64,000 nt of DNA from Sedimentibacter sp. (GTDB lineage: Bacteria > Bacillota > Clostridia > Tissierellales > Sedimentibacteraceae): the NCBI GenBank assembly GCA_032059885.1, contig DAMBZP010000008.1, forward strand, positions 54,961-118,960, read 5' to 3'. How positions within the stretch are numbered: position 1 is the stretch's first letter; every line of letters begins with the position of its first letter. The notes under the pieces were generated by a model. The model saw nothing but the letters and a program-made list of their open reading frames with translations. It ran no database searches and had not been told where the DNA came from. Positions 4,646-48,857 of this stretch are shown piece after piece. A program made the position numbers and the translations under genes.

Positions 4646-5710
4646 CTATTTATTATTTAAATGCCTGATTAATATATCGGCAATATTTTCTATTGACGCC
4701 TGTACTTCTACAGCTCCTATGTTGTATGCAACCATTGGCATTCCATAAACCACAGAGGATTTTTCATCCTGACCGATGGTATATGCTCCTGATTTCTTCA
4801 TATTCATTAGCCCCTGAGCTCCATCCTTACCCATTCCCGTAAGAATAATTCCTACGGAATTTTTACCTGCTGCTTCGGCAACCGAATTGAAGAGCACATC
4901 CACCGACGGACAGTGTCCGCTTACCTTGTCACCCGCTCTGCACGTTACATAGTAGCCTTTTTCATCCTTTGAGAGCATCATATGCTTGTCTCCTGCCGCT
5001 ATTAGTGCGAGACCGTTTTCGACTCTGTCTCCGTCACGCGCCTCCCTTACTTCTATGGCGCATATTTTGTTCAGCCTGTCTGCATACATCTTTGTAAATC
5101 CTGCAGGCATATGTTGAGTCACTAGTATCCCCGGAGAATCCTCAGGCATGTCCTTCAATATTTTGAGAGTTGCCTCAGTCCCTCCTGTAGATGCTCCGAT
5201 TGCTATAATTTTTCTTGAGGATGCTTTAATCAGCATTCTTGGGCTTTTCCCAGCCTCTTTTCTGGCTGCTTCCTCCCTTGACATTTCTTCTTTTTTTACA
5301 CTTTTATATGTTACAAGTTTCGCAATTGATGCTATTTTTATTTTTGTTTTCAACTCTCTTATAAATGACGGCATATCATTTCCTAAAGACATATCAGGCT
5401 TTCTGACAAAATCCACCGCGCCTGCCTGCAGAGCATCGAATACACTGATGTTCAGAGAACTTACCAGAACCACCTTTATGGGAGTTTCCGACATAAGCTT
5501 TTTTAAAAATATGATGCCGTTCATTTTAGGCATTTCAACATCCAGGGTAATTATATCAGGTTTCAGTAATTTTATTTGCTCCATGGCATCCATCGGATCA
5601 ACAGCCGTACCTACTACATTTATATATGAATCATTGCTTAATTCACTTTTTAATATATTCCTGAACAACAGTGAATCATCAATGATTAACAGCTTAATTT
5701 TATCTATCAT
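4646..5710 (-). CDS. cheB: chemotaxis response regulator protein-glutamate methylesterase CheB
   Basis: 354 aa. N-terminal receiver domain (LLIIDDS...DVEMPKMNG) plus C-terminal methylesterase (IIAIGASTGGTEA, GKDGA). Confidence 0.95.
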   Translation of the reverse strand: MIDKIKLLIIDDSLLFRNILKSELSNDSYINVVGTAVDPMDAMEQIKLLKPDIITLDVEMPKMNGIIFLKKLMSETPIKVVLVSSLNISVFDALQAGAVDFVRKPDMSLGNDMPSFIRELKTKIKIASIAKLVTYKSVKKEEMSREEAARKEAGKSPRMLIKASSRKIIAIGASTGGTEATLKILKDMPEDSPGILVTQHMPAGFTKMYADRLNKICAIEVREARDGDRVENGLALIAAGDKHMMLSKDEKGYYVTCRAGDKVSGHCPSVDVLFNSVAEAAGKNSVGIILTGMGKDGAQGLMNMKKSGAYTIGQDEKSSVVYGMPMVAYNIGAVEVQASIENIADILIRHLNNK

Positions 5711-8615: not shown

Positions 8616-8643
8616 ATATCGGCAGTTTTTATAAATTGTTAAG
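8616..8643 (-). promoter_or_regulatory. sigma-28 (SigD/FliA)-type promoter upstream of cheA
   Basis: Minus strand reads CTTAA-N15-GCCGATAT. The -10 box lies about 40 nt upstream of the cheA ATG. The Bacillus SigD consensus is TAAA-N15-GCCGATAT. Confidence 0.55.
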
Positions 8644-8680
8644 CAGTAGGGAGAATTTTTTTATTTTTTCTCATTTAATA

Positions 8681-8709
8681 CTTAATTTAAATCATAATTT
8701 TGCCGATAT
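8681..8709 (+). promoter_or_regulatory. sigma-28 (SigD/FliA)-type promoter upstream of the plus-strand operon
   Basis: Plus strand reads CTTAAT-N15-GCCGATAT, with an exact -10 octamer at 8702-8709. It lies 68 nt upstream of the ATG at 8778 and is divergent from the cheA promoter. Confidence 0.55.
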
Positions 8710-8777
8710 AATAACTGAATAGGTTTAATTATCTTAATTTTTATGGTATAATTAATATCATACTTGCAGGAGCTACT

Positions 8778-10208
8778 ATGTTTGATAACAATATAAACGT
8801 TACAACCAATAAACCCGTTAATGATAACGTACTTAACAAACCAAAAGTAAAGCCCGAACAGGTTTTACCCTTTGATGCCGTCGACCCCACCAGGGTAACG
8901 AAGGCTCCAAAGCAGGACCCAAGCAATCAAACGGGACAGAATCTTTTCAATTATAATCCCGATTCAGTCTTTGAAAAATTTATAAAGTCGCTGCAAAGCT
9001 CTCCTGTTTTGTCCGAAGGAGCCAAGAAGCTGCTTCTGAGCAACCAGTTTATCAATAACAATATTAACAGTGATCCGATACTTAAGGGACTGTTCGAATC
9101 ATTTATAAAAAGCATAGAAATGAATGATGAAGAAATTATAGACTTTCTTAAATTTCAGCAGGGAACGTATACAAAATTTCACGGTGAGTTTTTCAATGCT
9201 TTAAGAGCGTTACTGAAAACAAATCCTGACAATAAGGATTTTAAGTCTATACTGAAAAATTTTCTAAGAAGCTATGACTGCTTCGTGTCGGTTGAAGAAA
9301 CAAGCAAATCAATTGCTGCAGCACTTAAAAATATTGAAAGAAACCTGCCGGAAATGCTGAAAAAACCCTTTAATGAGCTGACAGATAAATTAGTTTTCGA
9401 CAATTCAAAGGGCACTGACCCGGATCTGGATTTATTAAAAAATGAAATAATTCCCTTTATAGGCAGATATATTTCTAAAATGAATGACTTTGGTCCTGTC
9501 AGAGACTATGTCTCCGTACTGATTCATAACACGGTAAGGCTGGAAGCTTCATCAATGAACAGATTCTACGATGACCTGGAAAATCTTCTGGAATACGTAA
9601 GATATAATTTCGATGTTGACGAAAAATACATAGACTCTCTGAAAATGTCATTATTAAGCACATATGAGGAAGCCTCAAACGTTAAAAACAATTCCATAGA
9701 ATCATTTTTAAAGCTGTTGGAAACAGGCTCACAAAAAAGCGAAAACCTGACCAGCAAGGGTGTGATGGATGACATGACGGAATCTTTATTGTTCAGTCAA
9801 AATGTCCACATACCGCTGACGCATATGTTCCTTCCTCTTAATTACGAGGGTATGTTTATGTTTTCCGAGCTGTGGATAGGCAAGGAATATGAAGAACTTC
9901 CAAATAAGAAGAAAAACCCCGAATACAGCATGTCATACAAGGTCTTCGTAACTTTTGACATTCAAAATATCGGATATTTTGAAACAACACTTGTATTAAA
10001 AGAATCCGGGCTGTCCCTGGACATTTATGTTCCCGGCAGCTTGTACGAACATATAGAAAAAATTAAAAGTGATTTAAATTCATTGTTGAGCAAAAATAAT
10101 CTGAACGTAACTAATATGACTGTGCAGGAAAGCGTCAGAAGAAGGAAGTTCAACGAGGTGTTTTCAAATCTGACTGAAAGGAAAAGCGGCGTAGATGTCA
10201 CAATATAA
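8778..10208 (+). CDS. hypothetical protein with FliK-C-terminal-like (hook-length control) region
   Basis: 476 aa, with RBS AGGAG 6 nt upstream. The N-terminus is disordered and rich in N/P/K/Q. The C-terminal segment YKVFVTFDIQNIGYFETTLVLKESGLSLDIYVPGSLYEHIEKIKSDLNSLLSKNNLNVTNMTVQE has the alternating beta-strand pattern of Flg_hook/FliK C-domains. It overlaps the next gene by 14 nt. Confidence 0.5.
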   Translation: MFDNNINVTTNKPVNDNVLNKPKVKPEQVLPFDAVDPTRVTKAPKQDPSNQTGQNLFNYNPDSVFEKFIKSLQSSPVLSEGAKKLLLSNQFINNNINSDPILKGLFESFIKSIEMNDEEIIDFLKFQQGTYTKFHGEFFNALRALLKTNPDNKDFKSILKNFLRSYDCFVSVEETSKSIAAALKNIERNLPEMLKKPFNELTDKLVFDNSKGTDPDLDLLKNEIIPFIGRYISKMNDFGPVRDYVSVLIHNTVRLEASSMNRFYDDLENLLEYVRYNFDVDEKYIDSLKMSLLSTYEEASNVKNNSIESFLKLLETGSQKSENLTSKGVMDDMTESLLFSQNVHIPLTHMFLPLNYEGMFMFSELWIGKEYEELPNKKKNPEYSMSYKVFVTFDIQNIGYFETTLVLKESGLSLDIYVPGSLYEHIEKIKSDLNSLLSKNNLNVTNMTVQESVRRRKFNEVFSNLTERKSGVDVTI

Positions 10209-10467
10209 AGATAAATCCAAACATGCTGTTGCGTTGAAATATGACGCAGGCAAAAGCGGCGCACCTGTGGTAATTGCTTCCGGATCCGGATATATTGCCG
10301 ACAAGGTTGTAGAGATAGCAGAAGAAAGCGGTGTGCCTGTTTACAGGGATGATTCGCTGTCGGTTCTTTTGTCTCAGCTGGATATTGGCAGCGAGATACC
10401 CGAGGAGCTTTTCAGCTCAATAGTTGATATTTATATTTATTTTCTGAACTTTAAGATTCCGAATTGA
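10195..10467 (+). CDS. stand-alone FlhB C-terminal-domain protein (EscU/YscU/FlhB family, YlqH-like)
   Basis: 90 aa. KHAVALKYD..APVVIASGSGYIADKVVEIAEESGVPVYRDDSLSVLL aligns with the post-NPTH part of the bona fide FlhB in this window (NPTHYAVAVKYD..APIVLAKGKDNIAMRIVEKGQEYKINIVENVPLARGLY). Confidence 0.85.
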   Translation: MSQYKDKSKHAVALKYDAGKSGAPVVIASGSGYIADKVVEIAEESGVPVYRDDSLSVLLSQLDIGSEIPEELFSSIVDIYIYFLNFKIPN

Positions 10468-10475
10468 GGTTTAAT

Positions 10476-12506
10476 ATGAATGATTTAATTTTCGCTCTGG
10501 ATATCGGAACCCGTTCTGTTGTGGGAGTTGTGTGTGAAAACTCAGATAACGTTCTGAAGGTGAATGAAATCAAAAGTTATTTTCATAAGCAGCGTTCCAT
10601 GATTGACGGACAGATAGAGGATATCAAAGAAGTAAGCAGAGTTGTAGGCATAGTAAAAAATGAGCTTGAAAAAAGTCTCAATATAAAGCTTGAAAAAGTA
10701 TGCATAGCCGCTGCAGGAAGAGCACTTAAAACAGAACGAATACTGCTGGAAAAGGAATCTGATTCAAGGATTCCTGTCTCTAATGATTTTATAAAGGCAA
10801 TGGAGATGGAAGCATTGCAGCTGGCTCAGGATGTCTTTTCAGAAAACGGCCGTACTGATGATTTGTTTTATTGCGTAGGCTATAGCGTACTTGGTTACAC
10901 TCTTGACGGAAGAAGCATGTCAAAGGTAGAAGGTCACAGGGGAAACAAGCTGTCCGTTGAAATAATTGCCGCCTTTCTGCCTCATACTGTAATCGAGGGT
11001 CTTTATTCCTGCATGGACAACAATGGTCTGGATGTGTGCAATCTGACATTGGAGCCTATAGCCGCGATGGATTTGATCATTCCCAAGGACCTTAGACTTT
11101 TAAATCTTGCGTTGGTTGATATTGGTGCAGGAACTTCTGATATTGCTATCTCAAAGGATGGAAGTATAGTAGGCTATGATATGGCAACTGTTGCCGGAGA
11201 TGAAATAACGGAATGCCTGATGAAAAATTATCTGATTGATTTTAACACTGCCGAGGAAATAAAATCCGCATTGAGTGATGGCAATGATTATGTGTCAATA
11301 ACAAATATTTTGGGAATTGCAATGGATGTTCCTGCAAATGAAATACTTGAGTCGATTAAGCCTGCAGTTTATGATTTGTGTGCGGATATTTCATCCAAAA
11401 TATTAAAAATGAACAACGAGGCTCCTGCAGCAATATTTTTGGCAGGCGGCGGAAGCAGAACTCCTTTTTTAAGAGAATTTTTATCTGAGTTTTTAAATAT
11501 TAATGTATCACGAATTGCACTGACTGATAAGAAAAGCCTGAAAAATGTTGACGCTTCATCATTGGAATATTATGGTCCTGAACTCATAACACCTCTTGGA
11601 ATAGCATATTCAGTCATCTTAAATAAAAATTATGATTTTTTCAGTGTTACTGTCAATGATAAAAAAATAAGGCTGTACGGAATAAGGCAGATGAAGGTTA
11701 TGGATGCAATATTGATGTCCGGATTTGACCCCAAAAAGCTGATAGGATTTTCCGGAAAGAGCCTCAGGTTCCTGTTTAACGGTCAGCAGCATTATTATGC
11801 CGGCGAATTTTCAATACCGGCTCAGATATATGTAAATTCACGTGCCGCAACCATAGAAACCTTTATACGACCGGGAGATAATATACTGGTAGTTCCTGCA
11901 AAGGATGGAACGACTCCATTAGTTAAAATTTCTGATATAACTTCCGGCGGCAAAGAAGGTGTCGTTTATTTCAACGGCATCAAGACAGAACTAAACCCCA
12001 GATATTTTGCAAATAACGTCGCAGTTAACGAAGATTATATAATAGGCAGCTCCGATTTCATAGAGGTAGTACAATTAAAAACAATCTGTGATTTATACAA
12101 TCTGTATAATATGGATGAAACACTTTGTACAAGCTTTATAGACGGTGCTGCGGCAGATGTGGATTTTGAGCTGTATGACGGGTGCAAAATAGATGTGCTG
12201 AAAACATCGGAGCTGCCGGGTAAAAAACAGCTCAGTGAAAAGGTATTGGCTGAATCTGAAAATGTTACATGCAGCGAAGAAGAACCCTCTATAACGGTTA
12301 TAGTAAACAACCGATCTATAAGCCTTCCGGGGCGAAAAAACAATATGCCGTATATATTTGCAGACATGTTGAATTACACGGATATAGACCCTTCTAACCC
12401 CAAAGGAAACATAATTCTTCTTCACAATGGCAAGGAAGCTTCTTATCTGAATTCCATATCAGATAATGATGAAATAATAATCAAATGGGATTCAGAACAT
12501 TATTAA
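10476..12506 (+). CDS. actin-like ATPase (FtsA/PilM/EutJ superfamily) with a roughly 300 aa C-terminal repeat extension
   Basis: Phosphate-1 motif FALDIGTRSVVG, phosphate-2 LVDIGAGTSDIAI and adenosine motif FLAGGGSRTP. ATG at 10476 follows GAGG with 6 nt spacing, so I prefer it over the ORF-track TTG at 10464. Confidence 0.6.
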   Translation: MNDLIFALDIGTRSVVGVVCENSDNVLKVNEIKSYFHKQRSMIDGQIEDIKEVSRVVGIVKNELEKSLNIKLEKVCIAAAGRALKTERILLEKESDSRIPVSNDFIKAMEMEALQLAQDVFSENGRTDDLFYCVGYSVLGYTLDGRSMSKVEGHRGNKLSVEIIAAFLPHTVIEGLYSCMDNNGLDVCNLTLEPIAAMDLIIPKDLRLLNLALVDIGAGTSDIAISKDGSIVGYDMATVAGDEITECLMKNYLIDFNTAEEIKSALSDGNDYVSITNILGIAMDVPANEILESIKPAVYDLCADISSKILKMNNEAPAAIFLAGGGSRTPFLREFLSEFLNINVSRIALTDKKSLKNVDASSLEYYGPELITPLGIAYSVILNKNYDFFSVTVNDKKIRLYGIRQMKVMDAILMSGFDPKKLIGFSGKSLRFLFNGQQHYYAGEFSIPAQIYVNSRAATIETFIRPGDNILVVPAKDGTTPLVKISDITSGGKEGVVYFNGIKTELNPRYFANNVAVNEDYIIGSSDFIEVVQLKTICDLYNLYNMDETLCTSFIDGAAADVDFELYDGCKIDVLKTSELPGKKQLSEKVLAESENVTCSEEEPSITVIVNNRSISLPGRKNNMPYIFADMLNYTDIDPSNPKGNIILLHNGKEASYLNSISDNDEIIIKWDSEHY

Positions 12507-12522
12507 TATTCGGGGAGGATAC

Positions 12523-13155
12523 ATGGAAAATACTGATAAACTGGTTAAAATATATGATAGAGGATATAAGCTCTTGGGAAGCGGTTATCTTTTAGGCATG
12601 AGTATAAGTACAATTAAGATTAAGGGTAAGAATTTACCTATACTGGATTCAAATGCCGAAATTATTGTAGAAATTTACGGTGAACTTTCAGGAATAATGC
12701 CCTATGTCTGCAGAGTCAGTCTTGCATCAAGGAATCAGCTTAATGCAACAATATTAAAATCAGAACAAATGGTTGAAAGAAGAAGCTCGCTGAAAATGCG
12801 AACAGATTTATACTTCCATGTAGATCATATTGTTAGAAACGGTGAAGATATATCGAAAAATGTACCCAGCTTGAAAATCAATGTTCTGAATTTAAGCATA
12901 GGCGGCATGTTAATTTCTTCAAATTATGAGTTAATGAAAGATGATATCTTATCCTTTTGCTTTCAGTGCAGCAAGGACCAGATTGTCCCTTTGAAAGCTA
13001 CGGTTATCAGAATTGACAAAATATACGATACCCATACTAAGGAACTGTCCTCTATAAACTATGGATGTAAATTTGAAAAAATGCCTCACTATGATGAGGC
13101 AATAATTGCCAGGTATTTATATGACAGACAATTGCAATTATATAAAAACAGATAG
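12523..13155 (+). CDS. PilZ-domain protein (MotI/YcgR-like size), degenerate c-di-GMP motif
   Basis: 210 aa. It has ERRSSLK (RRxxxK rather than canonical RRxxxR), followed about 37 residues later by NLSIGG (the D/NxSxxG motif). RBS GGGGAGG. Confidence 0.7.
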   Translation: MENTDKLVKIYDRGYKLLGSGYLLGMSISTIKIKGKNLPILDSNAEIIVEIYGELSGIMPYVCRVSLASRNQLNATILKSEQMVERRSSLKMRTDLYFHVDHIVRNGEDISKNVPSLKINVLNLSIGGMLISSNYELMKDDILSFCFQCSKDQIVPLKATVIRIDKIYDTHTKELSSINYGCKFEKMPHYDEAIIARYLYDRQLQLYKNR

Positions 13156-13163
13156 GAGTTCTT

Positions 13164-14951
13164 ATGAAAAAATTTACGATTTCAACACTGATACTTATCT
13201 TGCTTATCAGCTCATTCAACATTTGCTACGGTGCTGAAAGTAATAAAATAAAAGCGCGTTTTACCCAAAGTGACGTATCCGGCACAAATTTTAAAGAGAT
13301 AAAAATTACCCCCTACGGTCACGATGAAGACGATAAGGATTACAGCTACTATATTTATCTTCCATCAGGGTACTTTGTGGAAGGCACAAGTGCCACATAT
13401 GTTGTTGACAAAAACGGTACGTACCCTTTTACGGTTTACGACGGCAGCAATTGGAGAACTTTCACTTACAAGGTAACCACTGTTGAAAAGTCCGAGGATG
13501 ATGAAAAAGAGAAGAAAAAGAAGGAAGATGAAATAAGCGCCGACTTTGACCTGATGTATGATTATGAGAAAAAACAGATTTTATTGAATATGAAACTGGA
13601 TAAGGTAAGAAATATAGCTGCTCCCGGCAAGACTCTTTTATCTAATGAAGTAAACTATTACATAGGCAGCATTGTTAACGGACAAATGGTTGATTTTACA
13701 ATAACTGCGGATGAAAAACCATATAATTTCAAGGTCATCAAGCAGGGAGAGTTTTATCTGCTGATATATATTTCGCAGGTAAATTACAATGATTACAGCA
13801 CTGTGGTGGAGTATCACGGGTACAACTTTGCTGGAAACGGTAAATATGAGGCCTTTCCTTCAAAAACTATTTATGATGACAACGGAAGATATGAAGTGCT
13901 TGTTAAGGGTGAAGGTTCGCAGCAGATTTTTAATTTCAATATAACAGATATTGATTACCGCAGACCGTCAGTGAAAGTGGATATTGTCAATAAATTGACC
14001 TTTGAGCTGGAAGCTGATGATGATTTCGGTCTTGCCTACATTATAACATATGATGGAAAATACATACCTATAAGCGGTGCAGCCACTACGTCCTTCACAT
14101 ACAATCATCCTGAAGAAATAGTATTTAACGGTGATTATCTGTTTACAGTAGTTGATAAAAAAGGAAACCGAACGGTGGCGGATGTAAAGGTTAAAGACAA
14201 AAGAAAACCTACAACCTGGAGACCTGCAATAAGCTTGGATGTACATAATTTCAAAAATACCGGGGATTTGTTTGAAAATATCGGACTGCCATATGAAAAA
14301 GACACTGAGAAGAGAGAATATTTTGAAAATGCTCTTCCTGGATATATGAACGGAAAGGACTCTTATAGCTTTGGTCCCGATTTACCAATATCAAGAGCTG
14401 AAATAGTAACAATATTTTGCAGGTTAAATAATCTTCCCTATGATTCAAGTGCCTATTTAAAAACAAAATTCACCGACATAGGAGATCACTGGGCAAGAGA
14501 TTACATAGCAATGGGAAGCAGCAAAAAATATGTTTCCGGATACAAGGACAAGACCTTCAAGCCGGATAACAGCGTAACAAGAGCTGAATTTTGCCAAATG
14601 CTGACCAAAATAAGCTCTTATAAAACATTGCTTAATGCTCTTCCTGCTTCAAGCAATTACGAATATGCCGACATACACAAGCACTGGGCAGAGTCAGAGA
14701 TAATAAAAATATCCTCAAGAAATCTGGTTACAGGACAAGGAAATTACTTCCGTCCAGATGAACCGATAACAAGAGCCGAGGTAGTTCATGCAATAAACAA
14801 GCTTTACGGCTGCAGCCCTTCATACAAGGAGTTGGGATATATAAGCTCATTGTACAACGAGTATTACAATTTTAAGGATATCAATAATAATATATATTAT
14901 GAAGATATAATTATTTCATTGGTAGGTATGTTCAGAGAAAAAATAAATTAA
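13164..14951 (+). CDS. secreted SLH-domain cell-surface protein with Ig-like repeats
   Basis: Signal peptide MKKFTISTLILILLISSFNICYGA. There are three NGxYxFxV-type repeat cores (NGTYPFTVYDGSNW, NGRYEVLVKGEGS, NGDYLFTVVDKKGN). Three C-terminal SLH repeats are present (ISRAEIVTIFCRL; FTDIGDHWARDYI...VTRAEFCQML; YADIHKHWAESEI...ITRAEVVHAI). Confidence 0.85.
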   Translation: MKKFTISTLILILLISSFNICYGAESNKIKARFTQSDVSGTNFKEIKITPYGHDEDDKDYSYYIYLPSGYFVEGTSATYVVDKNGTYPFTVYDGSNWRTFTYKVTTVEKSEDDEKEKKKKEDEISADFDLMYDYEKKQILLNMKLDKVRNIAAPGKTLLSNEVNYYIGSIVNGQMVDFTITADEKPYNFKVIKQGEFYLLIYISQVNYNDYSTVVEYHGYNFAGNGKYEAFPSKTIYDDNGRYEVLVKGEGSQQIFNFNITDIDYRRPSVKVDIVNKLTFELEADDDFGLAYIITYDGKYIPISGAATTSFTYNHPEEIVFNGDYLFTVVDKKGNRTVADVKVKDKRKPTTWRPAISLDVHNFKNTGDLFENIGLPYEKDTEKREYFENALPGYMNGKDSYSFGPDLPISRAEIVTIFCRLNNLPYDSSAYLKTKFTDIGDHWARDYIAMGSSKKYVSGYKDKTFKPDNSVTRAEFCQMLTKISSYKTLLNALPASSNYEYADIHKHWAESEIIKISSRNLVTGQGNYFRPDEPITRAEVVHAINKLYGCSPSYKELGYISSLYNEYYNFKDINNNIYYEDIIISLVGMFREKIN

Positions 14952-14965
14952 TAAGGGGGATTTAT

Positions 14966-15241
14966 ATGGTATGGAACTACATGGAGGAAATCGTAAGAAA
15001 TTGCGTCAACAACATTTTACACACCAATGCTGAATATGCAGACATTTGTAAATGCGAGCAATGTATTGACGATATTATGGCAAAGGCTTTAAACAATCTT
15101 GCTCCGTACTACATTACAACAAAAAAAGGTGAAGTGTTTGCCGAATATTCCTCGCTTGAAACCCAACACCAGGCAGAAGTAATCAAGGAAGTAATAAAAG
15201 CCATGGAGTTTGTATCTCACGACTCCGAACATAAACAATAA
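14966..15241 (+). CDS. ComFB-family protein
   Basis: 91 aa. NYMEEIVRNCVNNIL...CKCEQCIDDIMAKALNNLAPYYITT matches the ComFB (late competence development protein) CxC..C / ALN.L.P.Y signature. Confidence 0.8.
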   Translation: MVWNYMEEIVRNCVNNILHTNAEYADICKCEQCIDDIMAKALNNLAPYYITTKKGEVFAEYSSLETQHQAEVIKEVIKAMEFVSHDSEHKQ

Positions 15242-15268
15242 ACCAGCTTACGCTGGTTTATTGTTTAT
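15231..15268. terminator. bidirectional terminator between convergent comFB-like and cheD
   Basis: Perfect 17-bp inverted repeat ATAAACAATAAACCAGC-TTAC-GCTGGTTTATTGTTTAT. It spans both stop codons, with U-rich flanks on both strands. Confidence 0.75.
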
Positions 15269-19400: not shown

Positions 19401-20201
19401 TCACCTCTTATTTTTTTCAGTATTATCGTTTAAGTAATTTTTAACGCATTTGCCCATTTTCTGCAATGCTGATGAGTGTATCTGTGAAACTCTTGAGTTG
19501 CTTATATTTAAAATACTTGCTATTTCTTTAAGCTTCAACTCTTCCTTGTAGTAAAGTGAGACGACCATCTTCTCTTTTTCATTCAGCTTGTCCATGCTGT
19601 CAATCAACACACTGTACAGTTCCTTAGTCTCTATTTCATTTTCCGGCAGTTCATATCCTGCTAACGCTTCGGTTTCTCTCAGGTTTGCTTCTCCCAACAG
19701 TTCCTCGAATGAAAGTATGCTGGAGCCGTATGCATTGTTAACTATGGTATTATATTCCTTAATGTCTATCTTTAGGTGTTCCGCCACTTCATATTCGCTG
19801 GGGGCCCTTCCCAGTGTGTCTGTCAGCTTATCCTCTGCTTCCTTCACATTTTTATAATCGCTTTTAACCTTTCGGGGTATCCAGTCCTGCTTTCTCACAT
19901 AGTCTATTATGGCTCCCTTTACACGTATTGAAGCATATGTTTCGAATTTTACGTTTTTGGATATATCATACTTCTCAATGACTTCCATTAAGGCAATTAT
20001 TCCTTCGTTGACGATATCCTCCACATCTCCGTAATGCTGATATACGCCTCTGAGCTTATATGCTATTATCTTGACTATGTAGCTGTATCGTTCTATTATC
20101 TGGTTTCTCACATGGATGTCCTTTGTGGCATAATACTGTTCCCACAAATCATATTCATCAATTTTCACATGGCTTTTTTCAGTTAAAATCATACGCATCA
20201 C
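19401..20201 (-). CDS. fliA: flagellar sigma factor FliA/SigD (sigma-28)
   Basis: 266 aa. Sigma-70 region 2 (GIIALMEVIEKYD, FETYASIRVKGAIIDYVR) and region 4 HTH (LKEIASILNISNSRVSQIHSSAL). Confidence 0.9.
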   Translation of the reverse strand: MMRMILTEKSHVKIDEYDLWEQYYATKDIHVRNQIIERYSYIVKIIAYKLRGVYQHYGDVEDIVNEGIIALMEVIEKYDISKNVKFETYASIRVKGAIIDYVRKQDWIPRKVKSDYKNVKEAEDKLTDTLGRAPSEYEVAEHLKIDIKEYNTIVNNAYGSSILSFEELLGEANLRETEALAGYELPENEIETKELYSVLIDSMDKLNEKEKMVVSLYYKEELKLKEIASILNISNSRVSQIHSSALQKMGKCVKNYLNDNTEKNKR

Positions 20202-22266: not shown

Positions 22267-23331
22267 TTAATGTTTTTCCTTTTCCCTGATTCTGTATACC
22301 CAAGCAAGTATCTCCGCAACCGGTTCGTAAAATTCCAACGGTATTTCATGATTTATTTCTGAATTTGCATACAGCCCTCTTGCCAACGGTACATTCTCAA
22401 CAATATTGATTTTATACTCCTGACCTTTTTCGACTATCCTCATGGCTATATTGTCTTTTCCTTTTGCCAGCACTATAGGAGCATTATCTTTTTCAATGTC
22501 ATATTTTACAGCCACAGCATAATGGGTAGGGTTCCTTATAATAACATCTGCCTTCGGAACCTGCTGTATCATCCTTCTCATTGACACTGCCCTTTGGCGT
22601 TCTTTTATTTTCCCTTTTACCTGAGGATCTCCTTCCATCTGCTTATACTCTTCCTTGACCTCCTGCTTTGTCATCTTTATATTTTTTTCATATTCCCACC
22701 AGGAATAAAAAAAGTCAAAAGCAGAGATTGCCGCAAATGCAATAATTACACTTTTTACAATGGACATTACGGATGTTCTCATAAAATTAACGCTTGATGA
22801 CGGAGCCACAGAAACAAGCCGTGGAACCTTTTGAAGATTTCCGTAAATAGAAGAATAAATCAATTGTGCAAGAATAGCTATCTTTATTAAGTTTTTCAGC
22901 ACTTCCACAATAGCACGAAGAGAGAACATTTTTTTAATACCGGAAAGTGGATTTAATTTAGAAAATTTAAATTTTATATTTTCTCCGGAAATTAAAAATC
23001 TTGTCTGTGCTCCCGTAAATATGACTGCCGCCAACATTGATGCAACCATCAGCAGGCCTGAGGATGCAAAAATGGTAAACGTAATATCCTTGAACACCTG
23101 CACCAGAAAAGTGCCGTTTAAGTCGTGGGTCTTGTCCATCAATGAAACATATTTATAAAATGCATCTGCAGTATATCTATAAATACGCGGCGCCCATAAA
23201 TTCAATATTATAAATGATATTGCTATGGAACCGACAGTAACTACATCCTTACTTTGAAAAACATTACCTTTTTTTCTCTCATCCCGCCTTTTTTTGGGGG
23301 AGGCTTTTTCGGTTTTATCTTCGCCTGCCAT
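22267..23331 (-). CDS. flhB: flagellar export apparatus protein FlhB
   Basis: 354 aa. GEDKTEKASPKKRRDERKKGNV N-terminus and NPTH autocleavage site (IIRNPTHYAVAV). Confidence 0.95.
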   Translation of the reverse strand: MAGEDKTEKASPKKRRDERKKGNVFQSKDVVTVGSIAISFIILNLWAPRIYRYTADAFYKYVSLMDKTHDLNGTFLVQVFKDITFTIFASSGLLMVASMLAAVIFTGAQTRFLISGENIKFKFSKLNPLSGIKKMFSLRAIVEVLKNLIKIAILAQLIYSSIYGNLQKVPRLVSVAPSSSVNFMRTSVMSIVKSVIIAFAAISAFDFFYSWWEYEKNIKMTKQEVKEEYKQMEGDPQVKGKIKERQRAVSMRRMIQQVPKADVIIRNPTHYAVAVKYDIEKDNAPIVLAKGKDNIAMRIVEKGQEYKINIVENVPLARGLYANSEINHEIPLEFYEPVAEILAWVYRIREKEKH

Positions 23332-31953: not shown

Positions 31954-33174
31954 CTATGTGTTTATTTTTATATTTCTTAAATTAATCATCTGTGAAAATA
32001 TTCCGTCTTCATCTTTATCAGAATCTTCACTGTGGTAATGGTAGCTTTCTCTGTTTCTCCCCTGCTGATTTGCATCATCGCTGTTCTGATGGCTGCTGTG
32101 CTGTTCCTGCTGGCCGCTGTCATGATTTTGAATGACATTGCGGTTTTCATATTGGCTGTCATTGACCTTTATAACAACATCGGCAGGTGTCTTAGAAGCT
32201 TTGTTCAAAATATCCGCAAGCTCTTGTGCATTGGATTGCAGTATCTTTTGTGTCTCCTTATTTGCAGCTTTAATTTCAACTGTTATTTTATCGCCTTCAA
32301 AAGCCATCTTTATGTCTACCTTCCCCAAACTATGAGGCTGAAGCTCCATAGTAACATATTTAACTCCAACGTCCGAATCCGGTTTATCTTCTGCCATAAA
32401 GACTATTTTTTCCTTGACCTGAGACAATACCTGCGGTTTTATTTCGGATGCTTCATCACTTACGGTAATGATTGTTTCTTCTTTGGACCTGTTATTCACA
32501 GAAAGAAGATTTGCTTTGAAATCAATCTCATTTTTGAGCTTGCTTCTGCTTTCTTCAATTTTTGTAATGAGTTTCTCTGCTGAAAAACTGTGTACATCTG
32601 TACCGGCTTTTATGGAAACTCCTGAATTATCCTGTGCTTTCATAACTGTTGACGTCTGTTGTCCGTTGTAAATTTCGCCCTGCCCATTATTCTGTGGCTG
32701 CTGATATGAAGTCAATCCTGTATATGGCTGTAAATATCCTGATACCGGCATATTATAAATCATGTTTTCCATAGGGGCCTGGGGATTTATTACATTTGAA
32801 TCAACAGGATTTAACAATGCTGCAATACCATATAAATCAACCGGCAATTTATCTGTTATATTTTTCTTATCAGATTCAACCGTACCAGTATTAACTTTTT
32901 CGTCTGCTGCAATCTGATACACATTGTCAGTATCATTTCTGTTTACCATACCGTTTGCTGCCAAAAGCATTAACATTTCAGTGTTTATCCCAGTATTTTC
33001 TGACTGGGAAAGCTGAGCCGGATTTTCATTTTCAAGCATCATCATTTTTAGCATTTTCAAAAAATCATTTTTATTAATTCCAGCCTGTTGATTATTACTT
33101 ATGGCTGAATATCCCTGAAGCTGTCCCGCAAGAACATTATTGAGATTCATGTTCATATTTGTATTCACATTCAT
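31954..33174 (-). CDS. fliK: flagellar hook-length control protein FliK
   Basis: C-terminal VTMELQPHSLGKVDIKMAFEGDKITVEIKAANKETQKILQSNAQELADIL is the Flg_hook domain. ATG at 33174 follows GGAGGT with 6 nt spacing, so I prefer it over the ORF-track TTG at 33192. Confidence 0.85.
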   Translation of the reverse strand: MNVNTNMNMNLNNVLAGQLQGYSAISNNQQAGINKNDFLKMLKMMMLENENPAQLSQSENTGINTEMLMLLAANGMVNRNDTDNVYQIAADEKVNTGTVESDKKNITDKLPVDLYGIAALLNPVDSNVINPQAPMENMIYNMPVSGYLQPYTGLTSYQQPQNNGQGEIYNGQQTSTVMKAQDNSGVSIKAGTDVHSFSAEKLITKIEESRSKLKNEIDFKANLLSVNNRSKEETIITVSDEASEIKPQVLSQVKEKIVFMAEDKPDSDVGVKYVTMELQPHSLGKVDIKMAFEGDKITVEIKAANKETQKILQSNAQELADILNKASKTPADVVIKVNDSQYENRNVIQNHDSGQQEQHSSHQNSDDANQQGRNRESYHYHSEDSDKDEDGIFSQMINLRNIKINT

Positions 33175-33202
33175 TTTCTCACCTCCTTTCAATGTATATT
33201 AT

Positions 33203-38679: not shown

Positions 38680-39114
38680 TTACCTCCCGATTTCCAGCGC
38701 TTTCAACGCCATTTGCTTAGTCGTGTTCAGTGCTGTTATATTTGCCTGATAAGCCCTGTAGGCCTCCATCATATCAACTGTTTCCTTAAGTGTGTCTACA
38801 TTGGGCATATTTACATATCCGTTTTCATCCGCATCAGGATGCTCAGGATTGTACACAAGCTTGAATTCGCTCTCATCTTCCACTATTCCTGAAACCTCAA
38901 CTCCTCCGGCTTCGTATCCGCTGATGTTTTTCATCATCATGTTTTTAAAATTTCCTGAGGTTGACGACAGCACAACCATTTTCCTTCTGTATGCTCCTCC
39001 GTTTTCAGTCCTCGTTGTATCCTGATTTGCAATATTCTCTGATATTACATCCATTCTGAATCTCTGGGCGGTAAGACCTGAACCGCTTATATTAAGTGAT
39101 TGTAAAAAAGACAT
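38680..39114 (-). CDS. flgC: flagellar basal-body rod protein FlgC
   Basis: 144 aa. SGSGLTAQRFRMDVISENIAN and MMEAYRAYQANITALNT motifs. Confidence 0.95.
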   Translation of the reverse strand: MSFLQSLNISGSGLTAQRFRMDVISENIANQDTTRTENGGAYRRKMVVLSSTSGNFKNMMMKNISGYEAGGVEVSGIVEDESEFKLVYNPEHPDADENGYVNMPNVDTLKETVDMMEAYRAYQANITALNTTKQMALKALEIGR

Positions 39115-39129
39115 TTTATCCCTCCCTGA

Positions 39130-39516
39130 TTATTTTTTCCCTTCGGAAATTACTGATTTAAGTTTGGAAAAATAAGAATTAACTTCTGTTACAGTATACA
39201 TGTATTGAAATTGTGTCTTTGCCAGCTGTAGGTTTTCTTTTTCGAAGTCAACATTATTTCCATCAAGTCTTAAAGATTGGTTTTCATTTTCCTTGACGAG
39301 AATATTGCTGGAATCAATTTGCTGATTTATTTCTGATTTGGTGTTTGCGGAGTTATTCAAATTTGCTTTGAGAAGATTTTCGAATTCAACAAATTTGCTT
39401 TTATACCCTGGTGTAGAATAGTTTGCTATGTTTTCCATGTTTACTTGCTGCCTGAGCCATAGCCCGTTCAGACTCTTGTTAAGCAGATTAAGATTTGTGC
39501 TTTCAATAATTTTCAT
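39130..39516 (-). CDS. flgB: flagellar basal-body rod protein FlgB
   Basis: 128 aa. LRQQVNMENIANYSTPGYK motif. It is the first gene after the leader. Confidence 0.9.
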   Translation of the reverse strand: MKIIESTNLNLLNKSLNGLWLRQQVNMENIANYSTPGYKSKFVEFENLLKANLNNSANTKSEINQQIDSSNILVKENENQSLRLDGNNVDFEKENLQLAKTQFQYMYTVTEVNSYFSKLKSVISEGKK

Positions 39517-39609: not shown

Positions 39610-39697
39610 TCGTTGGCAACTGGCTACCGTAGTTTCCCTTAGGCCCTATAGTTTTGTGTCACTGCCTTTCGACAGTTTTACCTTTTTCAATTGATGG
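39610..39697 (-). promoter_or_regulatory. c-di-GMP-I (GEMM-I)-like riboswitch aptamer in the flgB leader
   Basis: Minus-strand RNA reads CAAUUGAAAAAGGUAAAACUGUCGAAAGGCAGUGACACAAAACUAUAGGGCCUAAGGGAAACUACGGUAGCCAGUUGCC. P1 is CAAUUG/CAGUUG. One hairpin, ACUGUC-GAAA-GGCAGU, carries a GNRA loop. GGUAAAAC, GACACAAAAC, GGCCUAAG and ACGGUAGCC line up with Vc2-type GGCAAACC, GACGCAAAGC, GGCCUAAA and CCGGUAGG. C. difficile has a GEMM-I element upstream of flgB. Confidence 0.75.
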
Positions 39698-39954: not shown

Positions 39955-40186
39955 TTTCTGAGCTTTTTAATTTGCTTTTTATATTATTCAGGCTGTTCTT
40001 ATCTATTTTTTCGGAAGCAGTAATATTAAATTCACATGTCTCTGCCAGTTCTTTTCTTGTTATTTTTATTTCTTTAGGAGCATTGATTGCTATCTTTACC
40101 TTGTCCTGAGAAATCTCTGAAATAATAATCTCAATGTCATCGCCGATCATTATGGATTCTGATACCTTTCTTTTTATAACAAGCAT
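39950..40186 (-). CDS. csrA: carbon storage regulator CsrA
   Basis: 78 aa. MLVIKRKVSESIMIGDDIEI...KVKIAINAPKEIKITRKE is the canonical CsrA fold sequence. Confidence 0.95.
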   Translation of the reverse strand: MLVIKRKVSESIMIGDDIEIIISEISQDKVKIAINAPKEIKITRKELAETCEFNITASEKIDKNSLNNIKSKLKSSEK

Positions 40187-40635
40187 CTTTTATCCTCCTC
40201 ATCGGAGAGGATATTGTGTCTCAGCGGATAAGCGTTCTGCAGTATGACCTGCTTTGCTTCCTTGGTTTCAGGATTAATGGCAACAGGACTCTTTAAATTG
40301 ACCACCGATTCCTTGACGTCCTCTCTTATTATGGCAATAACAAGATATTTTAAATCTGCTTCGTTTTTTACACCAAGCTCATCCAGATCTTCTTCATTCA
40401 AAGCCGGCTCATAATTTCTTAATATTGTGTATGGGTCAATAAGCACAAATGATAAATCGGTATTATCAAGTGATTGAAGAAACATTACATCATCTTCAGG
40501 ACTATCCTTTAATATCACATAGCTTTTATAATCGTCAAACCCGTACATGCCGCTTGTAAAGCTTATGACATCCTCGGGCCTGACTGTTATTTCTCCAAAA
40601 TCCCTGGTCTTTATATTTAATTCTTTATCAGGCAA
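40174..40635 (-). CDS. fliW: flagellar assembly factor FliW
   Basis: 153 aa. FGEITVRPEDVISFTSGMYGFDDYKSYVIL and NLKSPVAINPETKEAKQVIL patterns. It pairs with csrA. TTG start. Confidence 0.9.
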   Translation of the reverse strand: MPDKELNIKTRDFGEITVRPEDVISFTSGMYGFDDYKSYVILKDSPEDDVMFLQSLDNTDLSFVLIDPYTILRNYEPALNEEDLDELGVKNEADLKYLVIAIIREDVKESVVNLKSPVAINPETKEAKQVILQNAYPLRHNILSDEEDKRCLL

Positions 40636-41236
40636 ATGTATCTATCTCCTTATATTCAGGATCGGCACTCGGTGGAATATAAATAGGCTTACCTATATAA
40701 TTCACTTCAATCCTGGGGTATTCCTTTATGATGAGCTCTATGCTCCCGGGAGTGAACTCTATGCGTGGTCTTTCAATATTCCAGTCAAAATCAAGTCTGT
40801 CCATTTCAAAATTCATTGATATTCCTCCGATATCCCAGGAAATATCAGGTCCGACACCGGGAGCAAACCCGAGATTGAAGTCAACATCACTAAAAAACTT
40901 CCTCATTGCTATTTCAGGAATTGGATTATCCATAAAGTCAACATCAAGCATGAGGTTGCCTTCTCTGGCGTATGATGCTGTAGCTTCATATGCAGCCTGC
41001 ACTCCCTTTTGTGCAATATCAGAAACAGAACGCATAGCGCTTTTTATTCCTGCAGAATATCTGGCCTCTATTGTGTCTATATTTAATCTGGTAGGCCTCA
41101 TCTGCATCTGGAGACCACCCTTGTCTCTCTTAAGTTCAAATGTTGCATCAGTTGTCGCTAATTCATAGCGCGCATTATTAATTTTAAGTTCAAAGGACAT
41201 AGGAACGGTTTTTATCTCTAAAAGCGGTTCTATCAT
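40628..41236 (-). CDS. conserved hypothetical protein in the YviE position (between flgL and fliW)
   Basis: 202 aa. Assignment by synteny with the Bacillus flgK-flgL-yviE-fliW-csrA order. No motif that I can name with certainty. Confidence 0.5.
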   Translation of the reverse strand: MIEPLLEIKTVPMSFELKINNARYELATTDATFELKRDKGGLQMQMRPTRLNIDTIEARYSAGIKSAMRSVSDIAQKGVQAAYEATASYAREGNLMLDVDFMDNPIPEIAMRKFFSDVDFNLGFAPGVGPDISWDIGGISMNFEMDRLDFDWNIERPRIEFTPGSIELIIKEYPRIEVNYIGKPIYIPPSADPEYKEIDTFA

Positions 41237-47638: not shown

Positions 47639-48094
47639 TCAGTGCCTTGGATTTTTCCTGACAATGAGGACCGCTTTAATAACTTCTGTTGTTGCCTCTT
47701 TTCCCATTTCCTTTAATTCATGAATCTTTTCTTTCACTTCATCATCCGTTGCAACTATGTACATCGGCTTAAGATTGTTCATTGCAATAGCTGTTATGTC
47801 CATCCTGCAGCGCTGGCACTTGCAGCAGTTCACCTTTTTAAGCGTAACATCAAGCTTGCTGAGAACAAGCTTTTCAGTTATATTATACAATGATGACTCA
47901 ATCTTATTGTTCTGAATTATGTTTGATTCCCTGTCCTGAAATACCGGTGCTTCTTTTGAGAAATTATTACCGCTGGCATTTACAGCGGATTCGTTTGTTC
48001 CGCTTCTCGCTTCTTCAGTTTCTTTTTTTAAGCTTGCTGGCATTATTTTTTGATACATTAATTCTCTGTCAAATGTCTTTTTTATCTTTGCCAT
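47639..48094 (-). CDS. ComFB-domain protein with basic/disordered N-terminal extension
   Basis: C-terminal NITEKLVLSKLDVTLKKVNCCKCQRCRMDITAIAMNNLKPMYIVAT matches the ComFB signature. ATG at 48094 lies 1 nt after the ParA-like stop, with AGAGGG upstream. The ORF-track TTG at 48112 is the alternative. Confidence 0.75.
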   Translation of the reverse strand: MAKIKKTFDRELMYQKIMPASLKKETEEARSGTNESAVNASGNNFSKEAPVFQDRESNIIQNNKIESSLYNITEKLVLSKLDVTLKKVNCCKCQRCRMDITAIAMNNLKPMYIVATDDEVKEKIHELKEMGKEATTEVIKAVLIVRKNPRH

Positions 48095-48095
48095 T

Positions 48096-48857
48096 TTACA
48101 GCCCTCTTTCAATAAATTCTTCGACTAAGCTCATATAATCCTGCATTGCCGCATTTTTAGGAGAATAGCTGTAAATATCCTGCTGATTTGTTTGTGCCTC
48201 CATAACAGCTACACTTGACCGTATTGTTGAATTAAATATTCTTGTATCGAGCTGGTCAGCTATTAATTCCGCAGTACCTTTGATTTCCCTGCCTAAAACA
48301 GTTCTCTTATTGTACTTGGTAAGCACTATTCCCTCAACCTTCAAATAAGGATTGCAGTATTTTTTTACCCTGTCAATGGTTTCGGAAAGCTGTGCGATTC
48401 CCTGCAGGCTGAATATGTCGGCAAGCATTGGAATAACTATATGGCCGGAAGCTGTAAATGCATTGACTGTCAATATGCTCAGAGCCGGAGGCGTATCAAT
48501 AAATATGTAATCATATTTGTCCATAACAGGCGTCAATGCTTCCTTAAGCAAAAATTCCCTTCCTGTCTGTGTAAACTCCAGTTCTATACCGCTTAATAAA
48601 ATATTGGACGCAATAATATCAAATGAAGGCATTTTTTGAATTGAAAATGCAGTTTCAGCCTCTCCCTTTAATATTTCATAAATTGTTGGACAATCTTCTG
48701 TTTCAGCTCCCGAGCTGAAGCTTAAATTTGACTGCGGGTCCAGGTCTATGCATAAAACCCTGTATCCCTTTAATTTATAGCCCGCCGCAACTGCACTTGT
48801 GGTAGTGGTCTTGCCTACACCGCCCTTTTGATTTGATATGGAAATTACTTTAGCCAT
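48096..48857 (-). CDS. orphan ParA/Soj-family ATPase
   Basis: 253 aa. Deviant Walker A ISNQKGGVGKTTT, LDPQSN, and Walker B YIFIDTPPAL. No ParB-like gene is adjacent. Confidence 0.9.
   Translation of the reverse strand: MAKVISISNQKGGVGKTTTTSAVAAGYKLKGYRVLCIDLDPQSNLSFSSGAETEDCPTIYEILKGEAETAFSIQKMPSFDIIASNILLSGIELEFTQTGREFLLKEALTPVMDKYDYIFIDTPPALSILTVNAFTASGHIVIPMLADIFSLQGIAQLSETIDRVKKYCNPYLKVEGIVLTKYNKRTVLGREIKGTAELIADQLDTRIFNSTIRSSVAVMEAQTNQQDIYSYSPKNAAMQDYMSLVEEFIERGL

Follow-up and report, generated by a model that had tools for sequence, protein, structure and literature searches.

We analyzed a stretch of 64,000 nucleotides (nt), here referred to as the window, from Sedimentibacter sp. 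(assembly GCA_032059885.1, contig DAMBZP010000008.1, positions 54,961 to 118,960 of the forward strand). It contains a flagellar locus in which six plus-strand open reading frames (ORFs), located at 8778 to 15241, form an operon whose proteins have their closest relatives in Sedimentibacter (Tissierellia). An earlier inspection of the DNA alone, here called the sequence-only reading, had concluded that this combination of genes could not be mapped to any described flagellar subsystem. This conclusion is not supported, as genes 1 and 2 appear to be of the fliK2-flhX kind and ComFB, the family of the last gene, is a published motility-inhibiting receptor for cyclic di-GMP (c-di-GMP). We suggest that the operon is a late flagellar unit of the FliA type, in which a fliK2-flhX-like core is expressed together with candidate c-di-GMP receptors and lineage-specific passengers.

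The operon and its setting

The elements of the operon, its flanking signals and the gene for the corresponding sigma factor are as follows.

8616 to 8643, minus strand: divergent sigma-28-type promoter facing cheA (CTTAAC, 14-nt spacer, GCCGATAT), read in the sequence.
8681 to 8709, plus strand: sigma-28-type promoter of the operon (CTTAAT at 8681 to 8686, 15-nt spacer, GCCGATAT at 8702 to 8709), read in the sequence.
8768 to 8772, plus strand: ribosome-binding site AGGAG, 5 nt 5' of the ATG of gene 1, read in the sequence.
8778 to 10208, plus strand: gene 1, FliK2-like protein of 476 amino acids (aa), assigned by fold and profile alignment, with no Pfam or NCBIfam family.
10195 to 10467, plus strand: gene 2, stand-alone FlhB C-terminal subdomain of the FlhX/YlqH type, 90 aa (PF01312, TIGR00789).
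10476 to 12506, plus strand: gene 3, accessory FtsA-like ATPase with an actin fold (PF14450, PF11104, PF06723).
12523 to 13155, plus strand: gene 4, two-domain PilZ protein of 210 aa, a candidate c-di-GMP receptor (PF07238).
13164 to 14951, plus strand: gene 5, secreted SLH-anchored wall protein of 595 aa (three SLH domains).
14966 to 15241, plus strand: gene 6, ComFB-family protein of 91 aa, a candidate cyclic dinucleotide receptor (PF10719).
15231 to 15268, no strand assigned: bidirectional intrinsic terminator common to the operon and the convergent gene cheD (17 perfect pairs, 4-nt loop).
19401 to 20201, minus strand: sigma-28 factor FliA/WhiG, presumed to act in trans on both promoters (TIGR02479).

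Genes 1 and 2 overlap by 14 nt, and the genes that follow are separated by gaps of 8, 16, 8 and 14 nt, in exact agreement with the coordinates given in the sequence-only reading; for gene 3, a TTG at 10464 is an alternative start. That reading also called an FlhB C-terminal domain, an actin fold and PilZ, SLH and ComFB domains, all of which score above their Pfam thresholds. Among the ORFs of at least 100 aa in the window, the operon is the sole plus-strand coding unit, as had been claimed. The only other plus-strand ORF of this size, at 167 to 580, was rejected as a gene; it is spurious and lies inside a minus-strand dCache/HAMP chemoreceptor gene that continues past the left end of the window. 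The operon is flanked by cheD-cheC-fapA-flgG-flgF-fliA on one side, with cheD being convergent with it, and by cheA-cheR-cheB-fliD-fliS on the other.

Genes 1 and 2 as a fliK2-flhX-like pair

The product of gene 2, which stands alone without the transmembrane part of FlhB, matches the end of the corresponding Pfam profile (PF01312, 65.2 bits against a threshold of 24.4, profile positions 261 to 334 of 335), and its best-scoring NCBIfam model is TIGR00789 (84.7 bits). From its residue 9 onward, it matches the post-cleavage FlhB-CC chains 3B1S_B (E 2e-13) and 3B0Z_B (E 2e-9). The sequence KSKH takes the place of the FlhB NPTH motif, and LSV-LLS is found at the position of the FlhB LARxLY motif. 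We aligned these motifs in gene 2, the FlhB protein of the window, Pseudomonas aeruginosa FlhX, Bacillus velezensis YlqH and other stand-alone copies. All of the aligned stand-alone copies are without NPTH and have a one-residue deletion in LARxLY in which its Tyr is lost, and gene 2 is also without the Arg of this motif. Because the changes in NPTH and LARxLY are common to the stand-alone copies, gene 2 is, by its motifs, of the FlhX/YlqH kind and not a recent FlhB fragment. Previous work identified NPTH as the site on HrcU that is bound by HpaC, a type III secretion substrate specificity switch (T3S4) protein, and LARxLY as the site of fliK and yscP suppressors; T3S4 proteins bind FlhB/YscU at its C-terminal domain, and HrcU-C works in trans.

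The sequence-only reading had described gene 1 as FliK-C-like. The protein has no Pfam or NCBIfam match, and no Pfam family, Flg_hook (PF02120) included, was found at an E value of up to 0.01; the likeness is seen in weaker fold and profile evidence. Clustering at 50% identity divides the gene 1 family into 377 clusters, the majority of which are full length, at about 470 aa. A Flg_hook match was obtained for 3 of 58 family members (best E value, 0.012), and the UniRef name of one orthologue begins with "Flagellar hook-lengt." In a model of the whole protein, with a predicted local distance difference test (pLDDT) score of 83, a disordered segment (residues 1 to 60) is followed by an all-helical domain (residues 64 to 339) and a C-terminal domain (residues 347 to 451), which is beta-rich with one long helix and has a pLDDT of 87 when modelled alone. 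A Foldseek search with this C-terminal domain alone gave the PscP switch domain as the top match (5CUK; probability 0.99, E 0.053, root mean square deviation of 3.3 Å over 68 columns), and FliK-C (2RRL; probability 0.94) was the only other match above 0.9. With hhalign, residues 390 to 449 of the gene 1 profile align with the Flg_hook core of the FliK protein encoded in the window (E 0.024). The profile also aligns over 103 columns with residues 375 to 479 of P. aeruginosa FliK2 (E 3.2e-4 and 2.3e-4, probability 39 to 44%), a region that includes the Flg_hook domain of that protein (67 bits, residues 398 to 478). A sequence-profile search of gene 1 against Protein Data Bank (PDB) chains returned noise only, helical-bundle noise dominated the Foldseek search with the full-length protein, and a Pfam scan of the helical domain gave nothing usable. 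Several weak lines of evidence, none of them significant alone, agree that the C-terminal domain of gene 1 may bear a distant resemblance to the FliK/PscP switch (T3S4, Flg_hook) domain. The helical domain of 275 residues is conserved and lies outside the comparisons with FliK. In these Firmicutes, FlhX has as its partner a distinct family of proteins, about 470 aa long, that is absent from Pfam and NCBIfam and has a conserved helical domain.

Gene 1 lies upstream of, and overlaps, the gene for the stand-alone FlhB C-terminal domain, which is the fliK2-flhX arrangement. We compared about 55 related loci, 45 of which came from a genome scan with one genome per species and a tight gene 1 alignment as the seed and about 10 from direct look-ups; the loci were scored with the six window proteins and their neighbors. 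The 14-nt overlap was found in 52 of 52 loci, namely, all 48 holding both genes and 4 more distant ones, down to 21 to 28% identity. In all 48, the distance from the ATG of gene 2 to the last base of the stop codon of gene 1 is exactly 13 nt. The overlap is dual-coding, as both the end of gene 1, ...(I/V)(D/N)VxI, and the start of gene 2, MSQ(Y/F), are conserved. The invariance of this dual-coding overlap argues for a fixed-ratio complex of the two products, and we read genes 1 and 2 as a pair of the fliK2-flhX (ylqG-ylqH) kind that is coupled in translation.

It is conceivable that the two genes are instead redundant spare parts, that is, duplicated fragments of fliK and flhB that are able to substitute for the originals and have no function of their own. 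Helicobacter pylori FlhX, according to a Pseudomonas putida preprint, partly replaces the FlhB C-terminal domain (FlhB-CC), and the window itself also encodes the canonical counterparts of both genes.

22267 to 23331: canonical FlhB with NPTH intact (TIGR00328 at 387 bits).
31954 to 33192: canonical FliK.

We nevertheless consider redundancy unlikely. The overlap is invariant across very distant lineages, the changes that gene 2 shares with other stand-alone copies are derived and affect motifs that are important for switching, and gene 1 has a conserved helical domain to which the comparisons with FliK do not extend. A pair of the fliK2-flhX kind is the reading that we retain.

Candidate c-di-GMP receptors and a c-di-GMP riboswitch

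The sequence-only reading had seen in the operon a pair resembling a type III switch and two candidate cyclic dinucleotide receptors, and both are present. The PilZ domain of gene 4 spans residues 117 to 200 (PF07238, 37.4 bits against a threshold of 22.5). Its (D/N)xSxxG motif is intact as NLSIGG; the first motif is RRxxxK throughout the Sedimentibacter orthologues, with the canonical form RxxxR in those from Oscillospiraceae. The N-terminal 116 residues gave no Pfam hit at an E value of up to 10 and contain no PilZN/YcgR-N domain, and neither the sequence nor the family profile matched any PDB chain, the solved PilZ, YcgR and MotI structures included. Gene 4 is best described as encoding a divergent PilZ subfamily in a YcgR/MotI-like context.

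Gene 6 scores 84.8 bits for PF10719 (threshold, 25) and 41.7 against the cutoff of 120 of the Bacillus-type NCBIfam equivalog. We used a list of the residues involved in dimerization or ligand contact in B. subtilis ComFB (N4, E7, D33, A36, L37, N40, R/K41, Y46, V47 and Y55). Eight of these 10 are kept in gene 6, as N4, E7, D36, A39, N43, Y49, I50 and F58, while Lys replaces L37 and Asn replaces R/K41. ComFB proteins have been reported to bind c-di-GMP, the inhibition of flagellar function by B. subtilis ComFB does not depend on MotI, and comFB genes are found near flagellar genes in B. subtilis and Treponema denticola.

Two further elements of the window belong to this picture. A full-length c-di-GMP-I riboswitch (RF01051; score, 72.3 bits; gathering score, 35) is located at 39612 to 39692 on the minus strand, just upstream of a 127-aa ORF (39130 to 39516) and FlgC (38680 to 39114), at the head of the early flagellar operon and before the first rod genes. 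This arrangement recalls that of Clostridium difficile, in which the Cd1 riboswitch precedes flgB. A second ComFB-domain protein of 156 aa (47639 to 48112, minus strand; PF10719, 70 bits), with an N-terminal extension of 75 aa, is encoded between a ParA/MinD-like ATPase (48096 to 48857) and a run of genes for CheW, a chemoreceptor, CheW, FlgN and FlgK. Because of the riboswitch before the rod genes and the second ComFB-domain protein among the chemotaxis genes, the flagellar locus is predicted to be wired to c-di-GMP at several levels. A riboswitch in the leader of the operon itself was considered and rejected, as the Rfam search found none there; the riboswitch at 39612 to 39692 is the only Rfam hit in the window. 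In the sister-clade loci L039 to L045, a similar larger minus-strand ComFB-domain ORF follows directly after the SLH gene.

Layered conservation of the six genes

The composition of the complete loci differs with distance from Sedimentibacter.

Sedimentibacter clade, 26 complete loci: 16 with the full set of six; 9 without the FtsA-like gene; 1 without the PilZ and ComFB genes.
Sister clade (45 to 47% identity), 6 complete loci: genes 1 to 5 in all 6; in 5 of them, gene 5 is followed by a larger ComFB-domain protein on the minus strand.
Loci binned as distant, mostly Oscillospiraceae/Ruminococcaceae (28%), 6 complete loci: genes 1 and 2 and a PilZ protein in 5.

Among cultured strains, S. hydroxybenzoicus DSM 7310 carries the form with six genes and S. 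saalensis DSM 13558 that with five. Genes 1 and 2 are also kept in further relatives, at 21 to 31% identity, in most of which a PilZ gene lies one to three genes away. In these relatives, the pair is still divergent from cheA, except that it is divergent from flgM at one locus and beside flgF-flgG at another; at the loci examined, it was always divergent from cheA or flgM or adjoined rod or filament genes. Of the 32 complete loci of Sedimentibacter and the sister clade, 31 have the SLH gene, whereas only 1 of the 6 in the distant bin does; one locus, L041, is without it. As family-level additions, the SLH protein and ComFB do not extend beyond these two clades. Since only gene 1, gene 2 and usually the PilZ gene are kept beyond the family, the six-gene set is, as judged from this distribution, a layered unit with an old core (genes 1 and 2 and usually PilZ), the SLH protein and ComFB added at the family level, and a dispensable FtsA-like gene. 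The survey of co-conservation that the sequence-only reading had proposed thus recovered the full set in 16 of the 26 Sedimentibacter loci, and beyond the family it recovered only the core.

Gene 3 has the FtsA/PilM/MreB actin fold in residues 1 to 380, with PF14450, PF11104 and PF06723 all above threshold, followed by a tail of about 300 aa. With 93.6 bits for the FtsA equivalog TIGR01174, it falls below the cutoff of 175.85 and is an accessory gene, and we rejected it as the FtsA protein of the cell; by its scores, it belongs to a family of FtsA-like paralogues. The actin fold reported in the sequence-only reading is thus borne out. The tail, which was thought to be novel, scores as a beta-grasp domain in some homologues: among the 120 homologues listed, the Pfam hits outside the actin fold included ThiS in 19 proteins, Ub-Mut7C in 11 and TGS in 3. 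Although the tail of gene 3 itself has only a weak ThiS match (E 0.17), it is probably also a beta-grasp. Homologues with 41 to 43% identity are located between nth and recG, outside flagellar loci. One of them, with 43% identity (L052, 8001 to 11917), overlaps the start of a gene for a GAF-GGDEF diguanylate cyclase. Along with the PilZ neighbor in Sedimentibacter, this single case hints that the FtsA-like/beta-grasp family is perhaps linked to c-di-GMP.

Gene 5 contains three SLH stretches (105.5 bits in total) and a hydrophobic, signal-peptide-like N terminus, MKKFTISTLILILLISSFNICYGA. These parts of its description as an SLH-anchored Ig-repeat protein are retained; the repeats are not, since the Pfam scan found no Ig family in the window copy at an E value of up to 10. 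A single Big_2 domain occurs only in orthologues of 690 to 716 aa. The Pfam scan gave nothing usable for the N-terminal part of gene 5. The SLH protein may have a role in the envelope, for which its predicted co-transcription is the sole evidence. The SLH wall protein is, like the FtsA-like ATPase, a lineage-specific passenger.

The sequence-only reading had gone further and proposed that all six proteins constitute one machine by which the wall or S-layer is coupled to the basal body or the export apparatus, for envelope passage, anchoring or braking, with the SLH protein as the wall-side partner and the FtsA-like ATPase as a cytoskeletal element. The tight packing of the six genes behind one promoter and before one terminator would fit such a machine, as would the near-constant presence of the SLH gene in the two clades and the full six-gene order at 16 of 26 loci. 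It is quite improbable all the same, since outside the family the pair keeps PilZ and not the SLH, FtsA-like or ComFB genes. Moreover, 9 of 26 loci have lost the FtsA-like gene and kept the others, the relatives of this gene lie beside nth and recG, locus L041 does without the SLH gene, and the SLH protein has no domain that would connect it with flagellar parts. The proposal of one integrated module therefore gives way to that of a layered unit.

Promoters and terminator

The promoter CTTAAT-N15-GCCGATAT named in the sequence-only reading is present at 8681 to 8709. That reading had begun the operon at 8616, a position which belongs to the minus-strand GCCGATAT box facing cheA that it had missed. 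The octamer GCCGATAT occurs 7 times in the window, a 5-fold excess over the 1.35 occurrences expected, and none of 100 shuffled sequences reached 7. Of 49 related loci, 31 have a plus-strand CTTAxT...GCCGATAT box upstream of gene 1, 25 have a minus-strand mirror box for cheA, CTTAAxAA...GCCGATATAAA, and 17 have both; the plus-strand box was not found in the remaining 18 loci, among which is the S. saalensis group. The B. subtilis SigD consensus is TAAA-N15-GCCGATAT. The operon promoter has the exact -10 octamer and three of the four positions of the -35 part, and its 15-nt spacer is counted from CTTAAT. FliA/WhiG scores 229.5 bits for TIGR02479 (cutoff, 189.6) and is encoded 4 kb from the operon. 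The region between gene 1 and cheA is thus read as a pair of back-to-back sigma-28-type promoters, and the assignment of the operon to the sigma-28-type late flagellar class is supported because the -10 box is exact and conserved and because the FliA/WhiG gene lies at 19401 to 20201.

That the GCCGATAT box is not a working sigma-28 promoter, with a housekeeping promoter or several transcription units in its stead and a wrong "late-class" label, is the least probable of the alternatives: the imperfect -35 part and the 18 loci without the box would fit it, but the exact, enriched -10 octamer is in the same place in 31 loci and is mirrored by the box for cheA, FliA is encoded nearby, and the Pseudomonas equivalent is FliA dependent. 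Sigma-70-like matches are no commoner than expected by chance and hence do not decide the matter. The sigma-28 assignment is the one used below.

The terminator had been described as a perfect 17-bp bidirectional hairpin, which is what was found. It has a folding energy of -22.8 kcal/mol and the usual bidirectional build, with a 5-bp G+C core between complementary A- and U-tracts; it overlaps the stop codon of the ComFB gene and abuts that of cheD. A strong hairpin is present between these two genes in nearly all orthologous loci, although its sequence varies.

Several other features of the locus were noted. The minus-strand box at 8616 to 8643 suggests that cheA-cheR-cheB is also a late FliA-type unit. 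A further exact GCCGATAT is found at 4674 to 4681 on the minus strand, about 200 nt upstream of fliD and within the 3' end of cheB. At one related locus (L015, 16455 to 19986), about 3.5 kb is inserted between the ComFB gene and cheD, and in Sedimentibacter sp. MB31-C6 (L002, 16827 to 20713), sugar-nucleotide and glycosyltransferase genes follow the operon and replace cheD-cheC; because of these two cases, the downstream junction of the operon appears to be a rearrangement hotspot. Directly upstream of FliW (40174 to 40635) lies a DUF6470 protein (40628 to 41236, minus strand; 156 bits), a member of an uncharacterized family with a fixed place in the flagellar locus of the window.

A proposed late flagellar unit with candidate c-di-GMP receptors

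We put the probability at roughly 0.6 that the operon is a late FliA-type flagellar unit with a core of the fliK2-flhX kind, co-expressed c-di-GMP receptors and lineage-specific passengers. As FliA is active after completion of the hook-basal body, the operon would be driven at that stage. The products of genes 1 and 2 would then be made in a fixed proportion and could bind each other as FliK-C binds FlhB-C, with gene 2 providing what would be a free, "pre-cleaved" copy of the FlhB C-terminal subdomain. The resulting complex may modulate or stabilize the flagellar type III export gate in its late, filament-type state, and the PilZ and ComFB proteins may pass a c-di-GMP signal to finished flagella. 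By analogy with YcgR/MotI and B. subtilis ComFB, they would most likely slow or stop finished flagella as c-di-GMP rises.

Several observations weigh against this interpretation. Gene 1 matches no curated family, and all of its links to FliK are weak, with Foldseek E values of 0.05 to 0.3 and hhalign probabilities of 2 to 44% against single sequences. The TIGR00789 score of gene 2 (84.7) is below the curated cutoff of 117.35, and gene 2 is without NPTH, the site of HpaC on HrcU, so that binding between the products of genes 1 and 2 in the manner of FliK and FlhB is not assured. The PilZ protein has RxxxK and not RxxxR, no similarity between it and YcgR or MotI could be detected, and the ComFB protein of gene 6 has an Asn where Arg/Lys41 is expected.

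A bolder proposal starts from the triad of FliK2-like protein, free FlhB C-terminal domain and PilZ protein that is kept across Clostridia and Tissierellia. This triad could be a c-di-GMP-gated regulator of the export gate, to which the ComFB, SLH and FtsA-like proteins were recruited in Sedimentibacter. We regard this as a long shot; if true, it would mean that c-di-GMP controls which substrates are exported after hook completion, or whether any are, in addition to braking the motor.

Returning to the late flagellar unit, pairs of the FlhX type exist in Pseudomonas and in Bacillus (ylqG-ylqH position) and, as described here, widely in Clostridia and Tissierellia. The recurrence of PilZ with the pair, plus ComFB in Sedimentibacter, points to a link between the FlhX system and c-di-GMP which, if true, would provide a first handle on the purpose of FlhX-type proteins.

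Comparison with known systems

Three pairs from other bacteria were compared with genes 1 and 2.

P. aeruginosa (WP_003083123.1 and WP_003133180.1): partner of 492 aa annotated as flagellar hook-length control protein FliK; FlhB C-terminal domain of 111 aa; 4-nt overlap.
B. velezensis NZ_CP083716.1 (L058, 2280 to 4261): partner of 567 aa annotated as "glycosyl transferase"; FlhB C-terminal domain of 93 aa annotated as "FlhB-like"; 4-nt overlap.
Acetoanaerobium noterae NZ_CP154629.1 (L060, 5455 to 7998): partner of 847 aa with DUF6240 and Flg_hook; FlhB C-terminal domain of 95 aa; 2-nt gap.

The C-terminal ends of both the Bacillus partner (E 0.005) and the Acetoanaerobium partner (E 0.0015) can be aligned with the gene 1 profile. 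The ends of the four partner proteins (GVDVTI, WVDETA, KVDVKI and GLDLKV) are related, being of the xVDVxI type across phyla. The B. velezensis pair is located between rnhB and sucC, which we take to be the ylqG-ylqH position. Its 567-aa partner has no glycosyltransferase Pfam hit at an E value of up to 0.01, and its C-terminal end, KVDVKI, aligns with the gene 1 family; the "glycosyl transferase" annotation is probably wrong. In the A. noterae partner, DUF6240 scores 64 bits and Flg_hook 28.6 bits, just below the threshold, and the gene for the FlhB C-terminal domain is followed by flagellin and fliS genes. The A. noterae record is labelled a plasmid, yet it is 2.6 Mb long and almost unannotated.

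The closest parallel is the fliK2-flhX pair of Pseudomonas. In P. putida (PP_4328-PP_4329), where the pair was named, it is FliA dependent and its function was stated as unknown. As with genes 1 and 2, a FliK-C-like protein of about 480 to 490 aa is followed by an FlhB C-terminal domain of about 100 aa, the stop codon of the first gene overlapping the start codon of the second, and both Pseudomonas FlhX and gene 2 have lost NPTH and carry a one-residue deletion in LARxLY. The systems differ in that Pseudomonas FliK2 passes the Pfam threshold for Flg_hook (67 bits) and gene 1 does not, that the genes overlap by 4 nt in the Pseudomonas pair and by 14 nt in the window, and that similarity between gene 1 and FliK2 was detected only in the C-terminal domain. 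No PilZ, ComFB, SLH or FtsA-like genes are found among the annotated neighbors at the P. aeruginosa locus.

Gene 2 also resembles H. pylori FlhX (HP1575) and the TIGR00789 family, named "FlhB-like flagellar biosynthesis protein," which includes Bacillus YlqH, in being a free protein of about 90 aa that is similar to FlhB-CC and begins at the post-cleavage position. Compared with the T3S4 proteins FliK, YscP, PscP and HpaC, gene 1 may have a similar C-terminal fold, according to its best matches 5CUK and 2RRL, neither of them significant, and it shares with them a disordered N terminus and the pairing of its gene with an FlhB-type C-terminal domain. The ruler region of FliK is largely unstructured, whereas gene 1 has its folded helical domain of 275 residues in this place. 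HpaC provides an example of a T3S4 protein that is able to act from the cytoplasm.

On the c-di-GMP side, gene 4 is comparable to YcgR of Escherichia coli and MotI/DgrA of B. subtilis, in that its product, of about 210 aa, has a PilZ domain at the C terminus and an extension at the N terminus and is encoded in a flagellar locus. This likeness is one of architecture and context only, as gene 4 has RxxxK, no PilZN domain and no sequence similarity to these proteins. Gene 6, like the ComFB/CdgR proteins B. subtilis ComFB and Synechocystis Slr1970, belongs to PF10719 and keeps most of the contact residues, but the operon to which it belongs is of the sigma-28 type and is not a comF operon.

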